Assembly (NCBI GenBank): GCA_001430755.1
Contig: CP013062.1
Location: 180,001 to 212,000 of the forward strand
DNA: 32,000 nucleotides
Direction: 5' to 3'
From: Candidatus Peribacter riflensis
GTDB taxonomy: Bacteria > Patescibacteriota > Gracilibacteria > Peribacterales > Peribacteraceae
Both the position numbers and the translations under genes were made by a program. Shown here piece by piece: positions 5,039-13,266 of the stretch (position 1 is its first letter; every line of letters starts with the position of its first letter). Below the pieces are notes generated by a model. That model did not search any database. It had not been told where the DNA came from and worked only from the letters and a program-made list of their open reading frames with translations.

Positions 5039-5956
5039 CTATTTGGCAGCCGGCGCCGTTTTCGTGACGATGCGGATATCCATGCCTTTCGCTGTGTACT
5101 CCTGTGTCTGCTGCCTCAACGCAGTGATGATTTCCTGCGCAATCTGCGGACGGGCAGGATCCGAAAAGACGATGAACGTAAACTGCGGGAGCTTCTCGCC
5201 GTAGGCATGGCTGCCTGAAGCGATCTTGAGGGCCAGGAGGGCCTCTTCGATGGCGTGCGGAACGTTGTGCGGATCAGAGACCGTGAAGGCGTTGATGCCT
5301 GGCAGTCTCTGCAGTCGGCCGTCGGTACAGTCCACTGCTGCCGCAATGCCGGTGTGCGGCCCTTTCGTCATGGGCGCATCGCCGGTGTGCACGGCGTTGA
5401 TGCCGCGGGCTTTGAGTCGTTCGACGATGGTACCGCGCTGGAAGTTTTCTGCTGCCTTGTCGGGGTTGGGGGACTCTCCGAAAGCGATTCCGGCAGCACC
5501 GCAGGCGATGTGTGAGCTTAACTTTACCGTGATGGAATGGAGAGGCCGTTCCTTCCCAAGTGCGGTGACGTAGGTCACGACGGCATCGACGAGTTCATCT
5601 ACGTTCTTCCAGAGCACGCCCGATCCGGCCATGCGGAGCACGCGCTTGCCGGACTGCGTGGTCGCCTGCAGAAGCATGCGCTCGTCGATGCAGACCATCT
5701 CCACTTCGGTGACGGGTGCATTGCTGCAGTCGAAACATTCCTGCCACTGCTTCTCGTGGTCATCGAGCCATTCCTCGGGCTTCTGATTGAAGGGGTGGGC
5801 GAGTTCTTTTGCGAGCAGCGGAACCATATCGGGGTGGTGTCCGTGTTCTGCAGCGTGATCATCGTGTGACTGAGCAGTGGCCATATCGGGGAGGAGGGAA
5901 GTGGTGAGGGCGGCTGTACCCGTCAGGGTTTCTTTCAGGAAATCTCTGCGCGTCAT
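5039..5956 (-). CDS. Tat-signal protein with a beta-carbonic-anhydrase-like Cys/Asp/Arg...His/Cys zinc motif
   Basis: The ATG at 5956 is preceded by AGGAGGA (4-nt spacer). N-terminus 'MTRRDFLKETLTGTAALTTSLLPDMATA' is a twin-arginine signal. It is followed by the His-rich 'HDDHAAEHGHHPD'. 'VCIDERM', 'VLRMAGSG' and 'SSHIACGAAG' follow the beta-CA pattern CxDxR...RxAG...HxxCG. The longer ORF start at 6052 was rejected. Confidence 0.6.
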   Translation of the reverse strand: MTRRDFLKETLTGTAALTTSLLPDMATAQSHDDHAAEHGHHPDMVPLLAKELAHPFNQKPEEWLDDHEKQWQECFDCSNAPVTEVEMVCIDERMLLQATTQSGKRVLRMAGSGVLWKNVDELVDAVVTYVTALGKERPLHSITVKLSSHIACGAAGIAFGESPNPDKAAENFQRGTIVERLKARGINAVHTGDAPMTKGPHTGIAAAVDCTDGRLQRLPGINAFTVSDPHNVPHAIEEALLALKIASGSHAYGEKLPQFTFIVFSDPARPQIAQEIITALRQQTQEYTAKGMDIRIVTKTAPAAK

Positions 5957-6140
5957 GGCATCCTCCTGGGATGTGTGCCCGGTTTTCTGTGGGGGATCTT
6001 CGTCATGATACGGCACTTCAGTCATGGTGATGAGGGAAGAATTTCGAGGCATACTAAGGATTGCAGCAAGACTTTCAAGGCTCTAGGTGCAAAGAAATCC
6101 TAACATTGAATAAAAAAATTGTTCAAACAAGAGGTCGGAG

Positions 6141-6171
6141 AAAAACGGGCCACCACGAGGATCGTGGCCCG
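6141..6171 (-). terminator. rho-independent terminator of copA
   Basis: Read on the minus strand: CGGGCCAC, a 10-nt loop, GTGGCCCG, then TTTTT (plus-strand A-run 6141-6145). It starts 17 nt after the copA stop codon. Confidence 0.75.
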
Positions 6172-6187
6172 TTCCGAAACCGTGTTA

Positions 6188-9100
6188 TCACTTTTGAATC
6201 CTCAGCGTCGCAGGCACGAAATGCAGCTGGTCGAGGATGGTATCCGTCTTCGGGAGGATGCCTGCGATCAGCACACGGTTGCCGAAGAAGCCGTCGATGA
6301 CGTCGCCTGCATTGGTGAAGAGACCGTTTTCGATCATCATCTGCGCCTCGCTCGACCCCACGAAGATGGGGGTGGTGCGCTTGCCGTCGATGATGCGCGG
6401 CTCAAGGGCGAGGAGAGTGATGATCGAACGGAAGGTGGGGGGAATAGAAGCCGGAGTCGTCATGAACGCAAACAGCTTCAGATCGCCTTCATCATTCACG
6501 CCGAGGAGGGTTGCGCCCGAGGCAATGACCTCGAACGAGAGCCGGTTCACGATGTGTGCGAGATCGAGTGCGGTGCCCGTGGGTTTCAGGATGCCGATGA
6601 CCGTGGGAGTGGGCATGCCGAGGAATTCCTGGACCGTGTCGCCGATGCTGGAGTATTCGCCTTCTTCCCGCATGGCTGCCCCCTCCAATGAGCCGAGCAC
6701 CAGTTGCCGGTCACTCAGGGTCGCGGTCGTTCCCTCCTCAGCGGGGAGCGAAGCCGGGAGCGTATCTGTGCCGATGAGGAACTCCGGATCGGATCCCTCG
6801 TAGGCGATCACCGCCGTCTTGGGCGTAATGAGAGCGCTCACCTCCTGTACCGTCTGTGCGGGGATGCCCGTGCCCGGGCCGCTCTTCATGAGCGATGAGC
6901 TGAAGGCCGCAAATTCCAGAAAGAGCGCCGTGAAGGCGATCATCAGCACGAAGGGCGCCAGGAAGGAAATGAAATTGCGCTTGCGGGGCTTGAAGAAACG
7001 GATGAGCAGAGAGTTCGTCACGACGGAGATCGAGCTGAAAGCCATGGCGAGGCCCGCAAGCTCCGGCTGCAGCAGAAGCCCGAAGGTCGTATAGAACGCG
7101 CGGGCGGCGATGGGGATGCCGATCACGTTGTAGAAGAGCGCGAAGAACATGTTCTGCCGGATTTTGGACATGGTTTCCCGGGCGAGTTCGAGGGCGGTCA
7201 CAACGTCATTCAGGTCGTCTTTGATAATCACAATGCCGCCTGTTTCCATCGCCACATCCGTGCCCGAGCCCATGGCTATCCCTACATCGGCTTGTGCGAG
7301 TGCGGGGGCGTCGTTGATGCCGTCACCCACCATGGCGACCTTCTTGCCGCCTTCCTGGAGCTTCTTCACCTCGTTGGCCTTATCTTCGGGCAGCACCTCG
7401 GCGAGCACGGTGGTGATGCCGATCTCGCGGGCGATGGCGTTGGCGGTACGTTCGTTATCGCCCGAGATCATGACGATCTGCAGGCCCATGTTTTTCAGCG
7501 TCTGCACGGCTTCGCGTGATGTTGCTTTGACGGTGTCTGCAACGGCAACGGCGCCGAGAAGCTCTTTTTCCGTTGCGAGGATCATCACGGTTTTACCCTG
7601 CTCCTCCAGCTTGCGAATTTTGCGATCCTCCCGGCTGAAGGGGAGCCCCGCGATCTCGGTCATGAGCAGCCGGTTGCCGAAGTAGTACTTGGTGCCGTGG
7701 ATCACGCCCTCGATGCCGTGACCGGGGATGGCCGCAAATTTTTCAACATCGCCCGTCTCGATTCCTTCTTCTGTGGCATGGTTGGTGATCGCTTCGGCGA
7801 GGGGATGCTCGGAGGAGCGCTCCAGGCTTGCGGCGATTTCCACGATGTCTTCTTCTGCCATCGAACCGAACGTGAGAACATCGGTCACCTCAGGCTTGCC
7901 GTGCGTGAGCGTGCCGGTCTTGTCGAAGATGATGGTCTGGATCCTGCTCGCGGCCTCCAACGGCTCTCCGCCCTTGATGAGAATGCCGCGTTCGGCGCCC
8001 TTGCCGGTGCCCACCATGAGGGCGGTGGGTGTTGCGAGCCCGAGTGCGCAGGGGCAGGCGATGACGAGCACCGACGTGAAGGCCATGAGCGCGAACGAGA
8101 GCGACGCGCCGAAGACGAAGTACCACAGGCCGAAGGTCAGGAGTGCGATCAGGATAACAGCCGGAACGAACCACGCGGATGTGCGGTCGGCGAAGCCCTG
8201 AATGGGGGCCTTGCTGCCCTGTGCCTCCTCGATCAGACGGATGATCTGCGCGAGGGTCGATTCCTCGCCCACGCGTTCTGCCCGGAATTCGAAGCTTCCG
8301 TTCTTGTTGATGGTGGCTCCAATCACTTTATCGCCTGCATTTTTTTCTACAGGAATACTCTCGCCGGTCAGGAGGGATTCATCGACCGACGAATGCCCTT
8401 TGGTGATGGTGCCGTCCACGGGCACGGTCTCACCCGGACGCACGAGGATGATGTCGCCCACGGCCACGTCGTCGACGGGGATATCCACGGTCTTGCCGTT
8501 GCGGACCACGCGTGCGGTCTTGGCCCTGAGGCCCATCAGTTTGCGGATGGCGTCGGAAGTGCGTCCTTTCGCTTTGGTCTCGAGCCACTTGCCGAGCAGC
8601 ACAAACGTGATGAGGAACGCGGAGGTCTCGAAGTAGAGCTCTGGGATTTTGGCTCCCTGCAGCCCCAGAACTGTATTGTGTGCGGAGGCGAACGCGATGA
8701 AGTTGAACACGCTGTACACGTACGCCGCCGATGTGCCGATGGCGATGAGGCTATCCATGGAGAATGTCCACATTCTCAGGCTCGACCAGAATCCCTTGTA
8801 GAAGCCGGCACCCGCGATGAATTGCACCGGCGTGGCAAGTACGAGCGAGACGACACCGACGTACGCCGGAAACACCACGGCTCCCGGCAGCCACGGGAGA
8901 AAATCCAGCAGCATGAAGTAGAGCATCGGCGCACTCAGGACGAAGCTGAAGAGAAACCCGCGGCGGTAGTGGCGGATTTCCGCTTCGCGCTTGCGCCGGT
9001 CAAAATCGCGATCCTTCTCATCAACCAGAGTGGCCGTGTAACCGGCCTTCTGCACTGCCCGAACAAGATGGTCCACATTCGTCTTCGATGCGTCGAAGAG

Positions 9101-9805
9101 GACAGAAGCCTTCTCGGCGGCGAAATTCACGTGCGCCTGATTCACGCCCTGAACTTTCTTGAGTGATCGTTCAATGAGCATGGCACAGGAGGAACAGTGC
9201 ATGCCGCTCAGTGAGAGAGACACCTTCTGCGTTCCGGAGGAAGCGGGGGCATCCATGGCGGTGTCGAGGGGAAGTGTCGCCTGCAGTGTACCAGCGGTCC
9301 CTGCGGGAATGGACCGTTTGTCACCGGCATGGTGGAGCGCGTCCAAGAGGGAGGAGAAATTGGCGGATTGCACGAGGTGCGTGAGAAAATTCTTCGCCGA
9401 CTCGTCTCCTCCGGGAATGCTCAGTTCCGCATGCTTCTTTTGCGAGATTTTGCCTTCGAAGAGCGGTTTTCCGTGTTCATCTTCGACGACTGTTCCCTCG
9501 GCTTCCACGGAGGACGTGAGTTGCATCTTCAGCGGCTTGCCTGCCGCCACTGTCTTGCGCTTGATCGTGATGTCTGCGGGGGCTTCCTGTTCTTCATGCA
9601 ACACCTTGGCGCTATAGCCTGCGCGGCCGATCGCCTCGAGAATGGCATCGAGTGTGAGGGGCGCATCGAAGGCGATGTGTGCAGCACCCGATGTGTCGAT
9701 GGTGACCTCGCGGATCCCTTTCAGATCGTCGAGTTCCCTGCGGATCAGCTTGATGCAGGAATCACAGTGGATACCTGCGATATGGAGAGCAACCGATTGA
9801 GACAT
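6188..9805 (-). CDS. copA: copper-translocating P1B-type ATPase with an unusual 260-aa C-terminal extension
   Basis: 1205 aa. Two HMA domains ('AGIHCDSC', 'SGMHCSSC'), '[13 protein letters not shown]' (CPC), 'DKTGTLT', 'SEHPLA' and 'GDGINDAP'. After the usual end ('[14 protein letters not shown]') there is an extra TM helix and a duplicated soluble module (nt 6191-6970). Confidence 0.95.
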
Positions 9806-9819
9806 AGGAAGAGGGGGTA

Positions 9820-9844
9820 ATACCTATACCTAGGGTATAGGTAT
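9820..9844 (-). promoter_or_regulatory. candidate CsoR operator overlapping the copA promoter
   Basis: ATACCTATACC-TAG-GGTATAGGTAT has perfect 11-bp arms. It lies 15 nt upstream of the copA ATG and downstream of csoR. On the minus strand a TTGACG (-35-like, 9855-9860) sits 10 nt before the palindrome. The TACC...GGTA type matches my recollection of CsoR boxes. Confidence 0.6.
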
Positions 9845-9922
9845 CATCCTGTACCGTCAAGATCTGTTCCGCCACAAAAAACGGTATCAAAGAAGCGAAA
9901 TACATGATCTGTGCTCACTCGC

Positions 9923-10195
9923 TCACTTGTTCGCCATCCTCGTCACCGCCAGGATCTCATCGATCATCTTCTGCTTCTTTGCGGGGCTGCTCGTTTCGAT
10001 CGCACTCTTGAAACAGCTGTTCAGGTGCCCCTCCAACAGGAGAAGATGGGCTGATTTGAGTAGCCCGATGACCGCCAGGTTCTGTTGCAAAATATCGATG
10101 CAGTAGCGGTCTCCCTCCACCATCTCGATGATCTTTCTGAGGAGACTCTGGGCTTTCTTGTATCCGATGAGTGTTTTCTGCTTCTGTTCGGTCAT
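9923..10195 (-). CDS. csoR: CsoR/RcnR-family metal-sensing transcriptional repressor
   Basis: The ATG at 10195 inside ORF 9923..10321 gives 90 aa: 'MTEQKQKTLIGYKKAQSLLRKIIEMVEGDRYCIDILQQ...LLLLEGHLNSC'. This shows the DUF156 helical pattern with the C...H...C ligand arrangement. Confidence 0.85.
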   Translation of the reverse strand: MTEQKQKTLIGYKKAQSLLRKIIEMVEGDRYCIDILQQNLAVIGLLKSAHLLLLEGHLNSCFKSAIETSSPAKKQKMIDEILAVTRMANK

Positions 10196-10273
10196 GATGG
10201 GGAGAGGACGATGCAGAGACCGTACCATGACCTTGGGGGGAGGTAAAGGTGGAAAACAGTTCTTCTGCTTTCC

Positions 10274-10299
10274 GCCCTGCCGGATTTCTCCGGCAGGGC
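10274..10299 (-). other. GC-rich stem-loop between the copZ-like gene and csoR
   Basis: GCCCTGCCGGA (10274-10284), a 4-nt loop, then TCCGGCAGGGC (10289-10299). On the sense (minus) strand the loop reads GAAA (GNRA). No adjacent U-run, so it is not a classical terminator. Confidence 0.4.
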
Positions 10300-10325
10300 A
10301 GGAGGACAGAGCGGTGATCACAGGG

Positions 10326-10559
10326 CTACGACAGGGTCCGGACGTGGTAGGTTTCGTTGAGGTCTTCGACGGCTTTTGTCCATGCCGGAAGGTCGAAGTG
10401 ACGGTCGTGGTCGAGTGTGACCGTTTTCTTGTCTACGTTCACGTCGGTCTGCTGAATGGAAGGAAAGTCCTGGCTCACGTCTTTGATGAGGGCTGCACAG
10501 GATGCGCAGTGGATGCCGGGGATGGAAACAACAGTTTTTATGGGTGAGGGGGGAATCAG
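10326..10559 (-). CDS. copZ: CopZ-like HMA copper chaperone ORF lacking an ATG/GTG/TTG start
   Basis: My hand translation of the minus strand gives 'IKTVVSIPGIHCASCAALIKDVSQDFPSIQQTDVNVDKKTVTLDHDRHFDLPAWTKAVEDLNETYHVRTLS*' (stop TAG at 10326-10328). It is absent from the ORF track because the frame has no canonical start. Candidate starts are CTG at 10559 (overlapping the upstream TGA as CTGA), ATT at 10556 and ATA at 10541. Confidence 0.6.
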   Translation of the reverse strand: MIPPSPIKTVVSIPGIHCASCAALIKDVSQDFPSIQQTDVNVDKKTVTLDHDRHFDLPAWTKAVEDLNETYHVRTLS

Positions 10560-11959
10560 ATGACCGTAAAGGAGCCGCGGACCATGCCCATGGAACAGCT
10601 GAAGGGAATGCGGCCGGGGCTCTGCGGCGTGAATTCGAAGAGGTTGTCTCCGGCTGCCAGCACCTTCTGAATGCCGAGAGAGGGGATCACGAAGCCGCGC
10701 GTGCAGCCTCCTGCCTGTGTGCCGTCGACGTGAAAACGCACGGGAATGCCCGAGCGGATTACGATGTCACTCGGCTCGTAGCCGGAACCCGTGACGACCA
10801 TCGAGACCTCCTGCACGCCGTTCTGCACTGGTGCGGCGGGGGTCGGGACAGGCGCGTTCTGCGTGCCGAATGCGGAGGCGAATGTGCGGGGAACATCGAT
10901 ACCGACGAGGGCGAGACCGCTGTTCAAATTGTAGAGCGAGAGCACAAGGACCAGCGTTCCTGCGAAACGAAGGAACAGGCGTGAGGAGGATCCTCTGGCA
11001 TTTGCCGAAATGTAGCTGATGCCGAGCAGGGCGGGCAGCGTGCCGAGGGCGAAGATGAACATCGTCAGCGCACCCGAGAGAAAGCTTCCTGAGGCGAGTG
11101 CCACGAGTTGCAGCGACTGTGTGAATCCGCAGGGCAGGAAGAACGTGAGCGCTCCCAGGGCGAAGGGCGCTGCGGGATGGTCATTCTCCGAGAGGTTCGC
11201 GATCCAGTGGGCGAAGGCCTTGGGCGGCCGGATCGGAAAGCTCCCCTTCGGGATTACTTTTAAGATCGTGAGGGCGAGGTAGAGCATGATCAGGGCGATT
11301 GCCACGCTCATGTACCCGGTCATCTGCGCATTGAGCGTGATGGACTGGCCCAGCAGTCCCACGAGCCCGCCCAGGACAAAGTACGAGATGAGGCGGCCGG
11401 CATTGAACTGCAGCAGGGGCCGGAGGCGCTGCACGGGCGTTTCGCTGCCGTGCATCTCATTGTGCTTTGCGGCCATGGCAAGGAGCAGGCCGCCCGTGAC
11501 GGCAAGACAGCTGCTCATGCCGGCCACGAGGCCGATGACGAGCACGCCGCCGAATGTAAGGGCTCCTGCGGTCGACGGGGCGAGGGACACCAGGTCGTAC
11601 GCGCTCAGAATCTTGTAGAGGGCGAAGATGATGAGCAGTGCGCCGCCGATCTCCAGCCATTTCTGCTGGTCCGGTGCATCCGGCTCCTGTCGTAAGCGGC
11701 AGTCCTGCCGCGCAGTGACGATTTCCTCTTCTGTGACCACGCGGTACCCGGCATCGCGGATGACGGATTCCAGTTGTGCGAAAGAGGGGAGGTCATGTGC
11801 CGAAGCCGTAATCTCCGCCGTGCCCTTGCGGTGGTGCACTGCAACGTGGAGGACGCCGGACACTGCTTTGAGCTTGCGTTCGAGCAGGAGCTCGCAGCTG
11901 CCGCACGTCATCCCTCCGATGCGGAGGGTGAGTTGCCGTTTTTCAGTGGATGAAGACAT
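10556..11959 (-). CDS. HMA domain / DsbD_2 (TauE-SafE-like) membrane domain / C-terminal cupredoxin-like domain metal-handling protein
   Basis: The ATG at 11959 gives 'MSSSTEKRQLTLRIGGMTCGSCELL' (HMA). The polytopic core carries 'SSCLAVTGG' and 'FFLPCGFTQSL'. The C-terminal beta domain has His/Cys/Met ('RFHVDG', 'GGCTRGF', 'FSCSMGMVRG'). The 39-aa upstream ORF extension was rejected. Confidence 0.8.
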   Translation of the reverse strand: MSSSTEKRQLTLRIGGMTCGSCELLLERKLKAVSGVLHVAVHHRKGTAEITASAHDLPSFAQLESVIRDAGYRVVTEEEIVTARQDCRLRQEPDAPDQQKWLEIGGALLIIFALYKILSAYDLVSLAPSTAGALTFGGVLVIGLVAGMSSCLAVTGGLLLAMAAKHNEMHGSETPVQRLRPLLQFNAGRLISYFVLGGLVGLLGQSITLNAQMTGYMSVAIALIMLYLALTILKVIPKGSFPIRPPKAFAHWIANLSENDHPAAPFALGALTFFLPCGFTQSLQLVALASGSFLSGALTMFIFALGTLPALLGISYISANARGSSSRLFLRFAGTLVLVLSLYNLNSGLALVGIDVPRTFASAFGTQNAPVPTPAAPVQNGVQEVSMVVTGSGYEPSDIVIRSGIPVRFHVDGTQAGGCTRGFVIPSLGIQKVLAAGDNLFEFTPQSPGRIPFSCSMGMVRGSFTVI

Positions 11960-12017
11960 GGGGGAAGAGAGAAAGAAGGAAATGGAAGAGAGTGCGCGCT
12001 TGGCGTCTTCTTCCTTC

Positions 12018-12407
12018 CTACTGTCGCAGAACCACCATGGAGATTGAAGGGGGCGAGAGCGGTGGATGCTCCGCAATGGGAAGAATCAGATCATTTCCCG
12101 CAAAGCACGCGCTGCACGAGGCAGGGGGGGTTGCCGTGGGGGAGGAGGGGATTTCAAGGGGTGACAGGTCCGATGAGCGTTGCGTAGCCTGCGACAGACA
12201 GTGTCCGAGACAGGGCACATCACCGGTTGCCGGTGCGGGGGCCTCTTGGTCGTGCGGCGCACATCCGGCGTGGGATGCGGGCGCGGAGGCAAGGGCGACC
12301 GACATCATGATCTCGGGCAGCGTGTCTTGCGCCGAAGCCGTCTGCACACGGCAGCTCGTTCCGAGGACGATGTGAAAGCCGAAGGCGATGAGGAAGATCG
12401 TACGCAT
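12018..12407 (-). CDS. small secreted Cys/His/Pro-rich protein (possible metal binding)
   Basis: The ATG at 12407 gives the signal-like 'MRTIFLIAFGFHIVLGTSCRVQTASA'. The mature part contains 'SHAGCAPHD', 'PCLGHC' and 'SCSAC'. It is co-oriented with, and packed inside, the copper cluster. No homology recognised. Confidence 0.4.
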   Translation of the reverse strand: MRTIFLIAFGFHIVLGTSCRVQTASAQDTLPEIMMSVALASAPASHAGCAPHDQEAPAPATGDVPCLGHCLSQATQRSSDLSPLEIPSSPTATPPASCSACFAGNDLILPIAEHPPLSPPSISMVVLRQ

Positions 12408-12430
12408 GGGTGAACGATGCAATCGATGGA

Positions 12431-12607
12431 TCACGGCAGGGCTGCGCCACCTCCACACCCGCATCCTCCGCCACCCGTGTGGCAGGATCCCGCGGCTGGC
12501 CTTTGCGCCTCTGCGACCGACCTGTTCCCCGGCAGGGGGGCGCCCATGACGAGGTACAGCAGTGCGATGGCGGCCAGGCTCCAGAAGATCTGCTCTGACT
12601 TTTGCAT
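12431..12607 (-). CDS. 58-aa single-TM peptide with a Cys/Gly-rich C-terminus
   Basis: Below the track's 60-aa limit. My hand translation: 'MQKSEQIFWSLAAIALLYLVMGAPLPGNRSVAEAQRPAAGSCHTGGGGCGCGGGAALP*'. GGAGGT lies 11 nt upstream of the ATG. The stop is 23 nt before the next gene in the cluster. Confidence 0.4.
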   Translation of the reverse strand: MQKSEQIFWSLAAIALLYLVMGAPLPGNRSVAEAQRPAAGSCHTGGGGCGCGGGAALP

Positions 12608-12656
12608 GCCGACATCATACCTCCCCCCTAGGATCAGGGCAAGCGCTCTTCTTCGT

Positions 12657-13163
12657 TTATCGGGGCGGCGTGCGCATCATCTTCTGGGCGGTGTCTATCT
12701 GGATGTCGAAGCAGCGGGCACGGGCACGGCCGTGCTGGACATACATGCAATCCAAACGGCTCTCGCGGATGGCATTCACGTAGGGGAGGCGCTGCGTGTT
12801 CACATCCCTGGTCGGGGTGAACTCGCTGTAGACCTTGCGCGTCTGTTCCCAGTGCTCAGCGAACGCGTCGGCCCGTTCCTGCTGCAGCCGGTCGCGGCGG
12901 TGTTGGCCGCCCAGGTCCATCCAGTCGTAGACTGCGAACGCATTGATGGGGTTGCTCTTGCCCCACTCTGCCTCGGCGCGCTTGAGTTCGCGCACTTCGC
13001 AACGGATGCGCCGGTCGGCGCTCACTTTCTTACACGGCAGCAGGATGCGTTCTTTTTCGCGCTCAGAAAATTCCTTGCGCGGGAGCGGCGCAACCGCCCA
13101 TCCCGGTGTGGCAACCGAGAGCAGCAGGAACGAGAGCACGATGCGGGAAATCCAGGAAGTCAT
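12657..13163 (-). CDS. secreted hypothetical protein (signal peptide, 4 Cys)
   Basis: 168 aa. 'MTSWISRIVLSFLLLSVATPGWAVA' is signal-like. The rest has a mixed charged composition, unlike the Ala/Arg/Pro-rich antisense ORF 12417..13166. Confidence 0.6.
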   Translation of the reverse strand: MTSWISRIVLSFLLLSVATPGWAVAPLPRKEFSEREKERILLPCKKVSADRRIRCEVRELKRAEAEWGKSNPINAFAVYDWMDLGGQHRRDRLQQERADAFAEHWEQTRKVYSEFTPTRDVNTQRLPYVNAIRESRLDCMYVQHGRARARCFDIQIDTAQKMMRTPPR

Positions 13164-13236: not shown

Positions 13237-13266
13237 AAAAGAGCCCCGCACCTGCGAAGCTCTTTT
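13237..13266 (-). terminator. weak terminator-like hairpin after the Zn-ribbon gene
   Basis: AAAAGAGC, a 14-nt loop, then GCTCTTTT. The minus-strand reading is followed by TTTTTT. The stem is short and AU-rich. Confidence 0.3.

Follow-up and report, generated by a model that had tools for sequence, protein, structure and literature searches.

A CsoR–CopZ–CopA copper cluster with candidate outer-face parts in a Candidatus Peribacter genome

The window analysed here, a 32,000-nt stretch (G000:C1:180001-212000) of a single-contig 1.25-Mb genome of 98% completeness, contains a cluster of eight reading frames between positions 13163 and 5039, all on the minus strand; coordinates below are positions within the window. 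Pfam and NCBIfam recognised 5 of the 8 genes, which encode an HMA–DsbD_2–cupredoxin membrane protein (hereafter the relay protein), a CopZ-type HMA protein, CsoR, CopA and a protein with an RR-type signal. On balance, we read the cluster as a CsoR-controlled Cu(I) export operon extended by outer-face proteins that would receive or hold the exported copper. Its core is an ordinary CsoR/CopZ/CopA Cu(I)-export module of a kind already known. A preliminary description of this DNA had centred on a more elaborate extracytoplasmic copper route, an idea that homology and synteny bear out for the relay protein, the CopA ectodomain, a 58-aa peptide and a 129-aa protein, but not for a 168-aa protein at the upstream end of the cluster or for the protein encoded downstream of copA. 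The functions given to the outer parts are all inferred.

The cluster is present with identical sequence in NCBI CP013064.1 and in three further assemblies, and its homologues carry the names Candidatus Peribacter or Peribacteraceae (Peregrinibacteria, candidate phyla radiation (CPR)). The organism is a tiny groundwater bacterium known only from uncultured material, and the paper in which five complete genomes of Peribacteria were described is silent on copper (PMC4736985).

Candidate outer-face parts and their conservation

The candidate outer-face parts are encoded by the following features.

6191–6973, minus strand: CopA extension, comprising an extra transmembrane helix (residues 945–963) and a MacB_PCD-like ectodomain of 242 aa that is acidic, free of Cys and internally duplicated
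12431–12607, minus strand: gene for a 58-aa peptide with an N-terminal helix or signal bearing an AxA site and a C-terminal SCHTGGGGCGCGG tail, ending ...SCHTGGGGCGCGGGAALP
12018–12407, minus strand: gene for a secreted Cys/His/Pro-rich protein of 129 aa, starting at Met20 of a 148-aa open reading frame (ORF)
10556–11959, minus strand: relay gene, 467 aa, with Pfam matches to HMA (40.7 bits), DsbD_2 (126.2 bits) and Cupredoxin_1 (37.9 bits)

The canonical pump ends in an RFFKPRKRN loop with five Lys/Arg residues, after which the extension begins with a ninth helix. The ectodomain was modelled with a predicted local distance difference test (pLDDT) score of 90.6 from a 20-sequence alignment, and its two halves are homologous to each other (E 8e-8). 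The best Foldseek matches in the PDB (5gko, 9ge7, 5lil and 5lj8) had probabilities of 0.96–1.0, but with E values of ~1e-2 and TM-scores of 0.25–0.33, each covering one repeat; nearly all of the best structural matches belong to the ectodomains of MacB, YbbP, LolC/E and HrtB, which are type VII ABC transporters. The Pfam family MacB_PCD (PF12704) was matched by 4 of 20 ectodomain relatives (best E 2.2e-5), the window's own sequence giving no Pfam match, and a PDB sequence search with the ectodomain gave only a weak hint of YtrF. There is no FtsX three-helix domain, as CopA ends after the ectodomain and the stand-alone relatives have a single helix.

An HMMER scan of 1.84 billion representatives retrieved 169 ectodomain clusters. 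Whole or partial copies occur in ~12 of the 401 Patescibacteria sampled, in at least 8 families, and always form the end of a CopA-sized frame. A stand-alone form of ~260 aa, consisting of one helix and the domain, is known from 70 representatives, and the named members (4/4) are all from DPANN archaea. In each of the six loci with enough flank (Micrarchaeota, Nanoarchaeota and Woesearchaeota), the stand-alone gene adjoins copA directly or is separated from it by a single small gene; HMA genes accompany it in all six and Cupredoxin_1 genes in five, with one archaeal cupredoxin 40% identical to the cupredoxin domain encoded in the window. The occurrence of the ectodomain as a fusion in CPR bacteria and as a neighbouring gene in DPANN archaea therefore argues that it and the pump are physical partners. 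The copper-related CopA ectodomain proposed in the preliminary description can thus be recognised as a distinct family, fused to or beside copA in bacteria and archaea. One Nanoarchaeota contig carries a large copper island: around copA lie the gene for a PCYCGC-motif protein (PF13798; L057:2917-3327), one for a ferric-reductase-like protein and several that encode Cupredoxin_1 or HMA proteins.

The 58-aa peptide is likewise conserved in copper loci, namely those of G002, G006 and G022, as expected if it is part of the copper cluster, to which it had been assigned as a transmembrane peptide. Its orthologues in the congeners G002 and G006 show an indel within the glycine run and keep the helix, the AxA site, SCHT-GG and GGCGCGG, and a homologue alike in N-terminus and tail is encoded between csoR and copA in G022, which belongs to another genus. 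The GGGCGCGG tail also terminates DPANN cupredoxins in three loci (...SCG-x-GGGCGCGG) and, in a Woesearchaeota locus, a 79-aa helix-plus-tail peptide encoded between copA and the ectodomain gene. When 60 loci (520 kb) were searched in six frames, the GCGCGG motif was found solely at C-termini in copper loci, in four CPR genomes (two genera) and four DPANN loci. The peptide is predicted, from these sequence features, to be an arm, either tethered or released, that holds Cu(I) as a thiolate.

Two other readings of the tail were rejected. This genome has a single place where the motif encodes Cys; a second genomic GGNTGYGGNTGYGGNGG site, considered as another Cys tail, lies inside a histidine-kinase gene, in another frame and on the other strand. 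The peptide was also considered as the precursor of a ribosomally synthesised and post-translationally modified peptide made by a multinuclear non-haem iron-dependent oxidase (MNIO; DUF692/MbnB), whose family, PF05114, has no match in the genome.

In all 10 Peribacteraceae loci for which that region is available, the gene immediately upstream of the relay gene encodes a homologue of the 129-aa protein. The 129-aa form is taken as correct because homologues align from Met20. Invariant residues of the family are Cys19, Cys49, His69-Cys70 and a C-terminal VL(R/Q) (here ...TVVLRQ), and relatives in three other genera have an N-terminal half rich in MxM and His runs, which are typical of extracytoplasmic Cu(I) binders. 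The residues preceding Cys19 are often not lipobox-like; Lgt genes are present in the genome. A profile search gave 34 clusters, all hypothetical and lacking any Pfam domain. These data agree with the earlier view of a secreted Cys/His/Pro-rich copper part, and parts of the cluster recur in G002, G006 and G022, and the 129-aa and relay genes together in 10/10 Peribacteraceae loci. None of the three small proteins at the upstream end (168, 58 and 129 aa) matches a Pfam or NCBIfam family, so that all remain unrecognised, as first described; the loci examined tie the 129-aa and 58-aa families to copper genes, but not consistently the 168-aa family.

The relay protein (start at 11959, as in the public gene calls) has the three domains initially ascribed to it, HMA, DsbD_2/TauE-like and cupredoxin, each matched by Pfam, but the architecture is not rare: >3400 proteins share it, mostly named sulfite exporter TauE/SafE, and the family is widespread but unstudied. 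The HMA domain has a CGSC motif and the cupredoxin domain the ligands C...CxMxM. The latter matches CupA (2mry/4f2e, E 1.3e-11) and CopA-MBD (4f2f, E 1.8e-11), with the first Cys and the Cys-x-Met-x-Met aligned, residues that form a binuclear Cu(I) site (PMC7558416). Seven hydrophobic segments were counted, and the loops after helices 2, 4 and 6 contain 3–4 Lys/Arg each and the remaining loops none, a positive-inside pattern that places the HMA domain inside and the cupredoxin outside. The protein is therefore predicted to present an outward-facing CupA-type cupredoxin, and both the homology (E 1e-11) and the predicted location support the earlier suggestion that the triple-domain protein adds extracytoplasmic copper handling.

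The membrane core of this protein allows a second interpretation, in which it carries electrons instead of copper, as a CcdA-like conduit of thiol reductant for the outer cysteines. The DsbD_2 match (PF13386) reaches 126 bits, and the core has one Cys in helix 1 (...MSSCLAV...) and one in helix 4 (...FLPCGF..., the LPCG motif), which is the CcdA/DsbD arrangement. All of the outer partners, moreover, depend on cysteines. Nevertheless, the N-terminal domain has the ferredoxin fold of HMA and not a thioredoxin fold, the relay gene always accompanies copZ and copA, and relatives in the same clan are metal transporters. We consider the electron conduit possible but doubtful.

The core module and the copper-supply alternative

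The features of the core are as follows.

10326–10541, minus strand: copZ, encoding a 71-aa HMA protein with CASC (HMA match 39.5 bits) and an ATA start
10274–10299, minus strand: hairpin 3' of copZ, with an 11-bp stem and GAAA tetraloop (−36.8 kcal/mol, z = −5.5)
10223–10245, minus strand: box TACCTCCCCCC-AGGT-N-TGGTA directly upstream of csoR, kept in three species of the genus
9923–10192, minus strand: csoR, 89 aa from a conserved ATG (PF02583, 58.5 bits; cut-off 22.8)
9820–9844, no strand assigned: putative operator, a 25-bp palindrome overlapping the −10 element of the copA promoter (matched by 0/100 shuffles)
6974–9805, minus strand: CopA core, which has two HMA domains and the CPC, YN, MxxSS and DKTGT motifs of a P1B-1 Cu(I) ATPase
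6144–6173, minus strand: intrinsic terminator of copA, a 10-bp perfect stem followed by a T-run (−26.2 kcal/mol, z = −3.9)

The co-directional gene order given in the preliminary description was recovered in full, with all eight frames as placed, and its hairpin, palindrome and terminator were each found by computation at the cluster. Intergenic spacers, from the 168-aa gene to the last gene, are 49, 23, 58, 14, 133, 117 and at least 135 nt. The likely transcription units, judged from the sequence, are the 58-aa, 129-aa, relay and copZ genes (perhaps with the 168-aa gene), then csoR, copA and the last gene separately.

CsoR contains the Cys/His/Cys set of Cu(I) ligands (YCIDIL and GHLNSC, read in the ORF), and its ATG at 10192 is kept in three genomes. 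The whole CopA frame (9805–6188, 1205 aa) matches TIGR01511 at 638.6 bits (cut-off 397) in addition to Pfam families. The palindrome at the copA promoter, whose −35 element TTGACG lies at 9860–9855, is unique in the window, and palindrome and TTGAC −35 element (nine to ten bases upstream) are kept in G002, G006 and G022, and hence in four genomes of two genera; it is predicted to be the operator through which CsoR controls the pump. Taken alone, the match to the TACC...GGTA pattern close to csoR does not reach significance; it was retained as an element because three species share the TACCTCCCCCC-AGGT box, which could belong to the promoter or be another site for CsoR. A hairpin of different sequence occurs at the equivalent position after copZ in G002 and G006.

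Families, motifs and palindrome thus agree with the textbook CsoR–CopZ–CopA module first described, with the exception that copZ begins with ATA and not ATG. The frame has no ATG, GTG or TTG start codon, and the ATA (10541–10539) occupies the position of the ATG in G002 and G006. The same ATA is found in four independent assemblies of different source, so it is not a single-read error. A programmed frameshift and a CTG start were considered as explanations and are less likely than plain loss of the start codon, given the ATG at exactly this position in the two congeners. In five genomes the copZ leaders are pyrimidine-rich and lack a Shine-Dalgarno sequence.

Four sets of public gene calls (L065, which is CP013064.1, L064, L066 and L067) all lack the 58-aa gene; for copZ they contain nothing, a 50-aa fragment, a 102-aa frame with a non-canonical start or a 106-aa ORF on the opposite strand, and the relay protein is publicly named a sulfite exporter. 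The present analysis corrects this annotation for copZ (missed or miscalled), for the 58-aa gene (missed) and for the name of the relay protein.

The ninth helix is not confined to pumps with the MacB-like ectodomain. In three other Peribacteraceae genera (G012, L014:6219-10106; G009, L015:7135-11013; G018, L013:2-3859), CopA has the same extra helix followed by a ~480-aa multicopper-oxidase/NirK-like domain with Cu-oxidase_3 and Cu-oxidase_2 matches, a pump–enzyme fusion of which a literature search found no description. The presence of an oxidase-type domain on the same helix in sister genera indicates that the ninth helix is a general mount for pump ectodomains, and the fusion leaves open a role in copper supply. 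Two further predicted exported cupredoxins are encoded elsewhere in the genome: a 157-aa lipoprotein-like cupredoxin with a CuA-like C-x3-C-x3-H-x2-M motif (L062:2736-3209; G000:C1, ~654.2 kb) and a 354-aa plastocyanin/azurin-like protein beside cohesin/fn3 and TPR genes (L063:2183-3247, ~376 kb).

These observations bear on the alternative that the system chiefly supplies copper to extracytoplasmic cuproproteins by a CopA2/CcoI-like metallation route. The oxidase-type pumps of the three sister genera and the CuA-motif lipoprotein and plastocyanin-like protein of this genome would fit such a role, and P1B ATPases devoted to the assembly of cuproproteins have been described (PMC8475189). On the other hand, repression by CsoR through an operator over the copA promoter is a signature of detoxification, pumps of the CopA1 type typically carry two HMA domains at the N-terminus and come with a CopZ gene, as here, and the cluster has no gene for a client protein. 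Supply as the chief function therefore appears unlikely to us.

Flanking genes and the possibility of lineage-specific passengers

Two genes at the ends of the cluster differ from the parts described above.

12657–13163, minus strand: gene for a 168-aa basic protein with a signal peptide and four Cys; no Pfam or NCBIfam match
5039–5956 (or from a start at 6028), minus strand: last gene, encoding a 305-aa protein with an RR-type signal and a His-rich N-terminus

The 168-aa protein occurs in 23 of 121 genomes of the family, with C44, C55, C139 and C151 invariant together with many Arg residues; no His or Met is conserved in the family. Its gene adjoins the copper module in 7/12 loci, between a treble-clef zinc-finger gene and the module, and is away from copper in the other five, three times between NDK and peptidase genes and twice with no copper gene within 9 kb. 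The ORF, signal and four Cys of the preliminary description hold, but membership of the copper system does not follow, the gene being unlinked in 5/12 genomes, and the protein is probably a neighbour and not a part of the system. In the interval separating the 168-aa gene from the zinc-finger gene, a 14-nt inverted repeat flanked by A-runs and T-runs (13237–13266) is likely a bidirectional terminator that parts the cluster from its upstream neighbour.

The last gene is preceded by a promoter-like site (6078–6051), and its product has the RR motif TRRDFLK (TIGR01409, 22.1 bits; cut-off 16.7), which is kept in homologues together with a weakly hydrophobic core and an ATA-Q site. TatC (PF00902) and TatA (PF02416) have no match in the complete 1.25-Mb genome, and TatC has none above the cut-off in 30 relatives; a twin-arginine signal is thus conserved in a lineage in which no TatC or TatA was found, and export, if any, must take another route. 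A separately transcribed, Tat-exported, His-rich protein had been proposed; the RR motif, His-rich stretch and promoter-like site are present, but use of the Tat pathway is unlikely.

The model of this 305-aa protein has a pLDDT of 78, with the first 72 residues disordered, and looks like a two-lobed beta-carbonic-anhydrase fold. Its best PDB match is CsoSCA (2fgy; probability 1.0, E 2.4e-3), with a TM-score of only 0.43, and the beta-carbonic anhydrase of Haemophilus influenzae was matched with probabilities of 0.3–0.44; no match was obtained to Pfam (Pro_CA) or in a PDB sequence search. CxDxR and HxxCG are conserved in the family with beta-carbonic-anhydrase spacing. The protein resembles CsoSCA in its predicted two-lobed fold and in these correctly spaced motifs, and differs from it in the RR-type signal, the His-rich N-terminus and the lack of carboxysome genes. 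Homologues are confined to Peribacteria-type genomes. The gene lies beside copA solely in this genus and in G055 (~30% identity there), and closer homologues (~43–58% identical) in four other genomes have flanks of ~7–8 kb on each side without a match to any cluster gene. It is thus probably a neighbour and not a copper part. The gene after copA is only 30% identical between congeners (G002, L009:6151-7098, versus window 5039–6052), compared with 76–86% for its neighbours, and has homologues 58–79% identical in other genomes, which suggests paralogue replacement at a fixed position downstream of copA.

The behaviour of these two genes raises the question of whether the other additions are also incidental. 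The cluster would then be a plain copper-detoxification operon, with the small ORFs and the CopA tail as lineage-specific passengers, for example in envelope or S-layer anchoring. The 168-aa and beta-carbonic-anhydrase-like proteins are indeed unlinked to copper genes in other genomes, and the small proteins diverge fast, with 34–50% identity against 76–86% for neighbouring genes. Several further observations weigh against outer-face copper handling by the added parts. The ectodomain family has no invariant Cys or His, its conserved His being swapped for Tyr, Asn or Gln in some members, and the Met that is conserved may serve the structure; we therefore favour a role in docking or mechanics over a metal site. 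The ectodomain is absent from most CopA genes within the genus, and its distribution among close relatives is patchy: G002 has it, and G006, in which CopA is 833 aa long, lacks it with the rest of the cluster kept, so that the module can do without it. The 58-aa peptide is so far restricted to two CPR genera, and the loss of the ATG of copZ implies that the cytoplasmic chaperone step may be weak in this species. Set against these points, the ectodomain is always fused or adjacent to copA in two domains of life, no locus retrieved has the GCGCGG tail or the 129-aa family outside a copper context, and the relay cupredoxin retains every CupA ligand. We consequently judge the passenger explanation improbable and continue with the reading of an export operon extended on the outer face.

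Comparison with known systems and a proposed mechanism

The core resembles the csoR–copZ–copA operon of Bacillus subtilis and the cso operon of Mycobacterium tuberculosis in its CsoR ligands, palindrome over the pump promoter, HMA chaperone and P1B-1 ATPase. It departs from both in the order copZ–csoR–copA, the hairpin after copZ, the ATA start of copZ, the ninth helix and 242-aa ectodomain of CopA and the three extra envelope genes upstream. The relay cupredoxin belongs to the same family as Streptococcus pneumoniae CupA and the N-terminal domain of pneumococcal CopA (4F2E, 2MRY and 4F2F), with the same Cys and Cys-x-Met-x-Met ligands for binuclear Cu(I). Whereas pneumococcal CupA is on the cytoplasmic face, the domain here is C-terminal on a seven-helix HMA–DsbD_2 protein and predicted to be outside, and CopA has ordinary HMA domains in place of the N-terminal cupredoxin of the pneumococcal pump.

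The CopA extension appears to share with MacB, LolC/E, HrtB and YbbP a transmembrane helix followed by an alpha/beta ectodomain and a G-x-EA...GD...V-G-[IV]-L...T...D pattern; unlike type VII ABC transporters, it has neither the FtsX three-helix domain nor an ABC ATPase, its unit is duplicated and it is joined to, or encoded next to, a P-type copper ATPase. The 58-aa peptide is comparable to the GGCGG swinging arm of SoxY and to MNIO (bufferin-type) peptides in being small, exported or tethered, and in ending in a Gly-rich stretch that bears Cys, but its tail has three Cys (C-x7-CGC), it occurs in copper loci, no MNIO was found in the genome and no Sox genes lie nearby. The nearest parallel for the proposed direct hand-off from pump to outside chaperone is Escherichia coli, in which CopA passes exported Cu(I) directly to the extracytoplasmic chaperone CusF (PMC7558416). 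The system proposed here would differ in using a CupA-type cupredoxin and Cys tails in place of an OB-fold, in having no outer membrane and no CusCBA, and in its fused docking domain.

The proposed sequence of events starts inside the cell, with steps that are established for these protein families. CsoR with bound Cu(I) leaves its operator, copA is transcribed, and Cu(I) reaches the pump by way of CopZ and of CopA's own two HMA domains. On the outer face, the duplicated, putatively MacB/FtsX-derived domain on the ninth helix would serve as a docking platform or as a mechanically driven hand-off platform, whose partners may be the outward CupA-type cupredoxin, the tethered peptide with its flexible Gly/Cys tail (C-x7-CGC) and the Cys/His(/Met)-rich secreted protein. 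The HMA–DsbD_2 core could provide a second route for Cu(I) across the membrane, or reducing power that keeps the outer thiols competent for Cu(I). Together, the outer parts would block re-entry of Cu(I) in a cell without an outer membrane, and they might also load the organism's surface cupredoxins.

A broader proposal concerns bacteria and archaea of ultra-small size with a single membrane. In them, CopA with its MacB-type ectodomain, the outward CupA-type cupredoxin and the Gly/Cys arms would make up the outer half, so far undescribed, of a system that exports copper or loads cuproproteins. The ninth helix would couple the E1/E2 cycle mechanically to an ectodomain taken over from type VII ABC transporters, and this ectodomain would pass each exported Cu(I) to tethered thiol carriers. 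We advance it tentatively, as a speculation with well below an even chance of being correct.

A literature search turned up neither this cluster nor the relay family nor any CopA–MacB-type fusion and, as far as the literature could be searched, the partnership of CopA with its ectodomain, the 129-aa family and the GGGCGCGG tail seem not to have been described before. We know of no account of how Cu(I) is handled after release from a P-type pump in cells without an outer membrane. The cluster offers four candidate outer-face parts around one pump, two of which, the ectodomain and the GGGCGCGG tail, are conserved across CPR and DPANN, and the hypothesis is testable in standard laboratory hosts. 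If it is true, this would be the first case known to us of a P-type ATPase recruiting a type VII ABC ectodomain.

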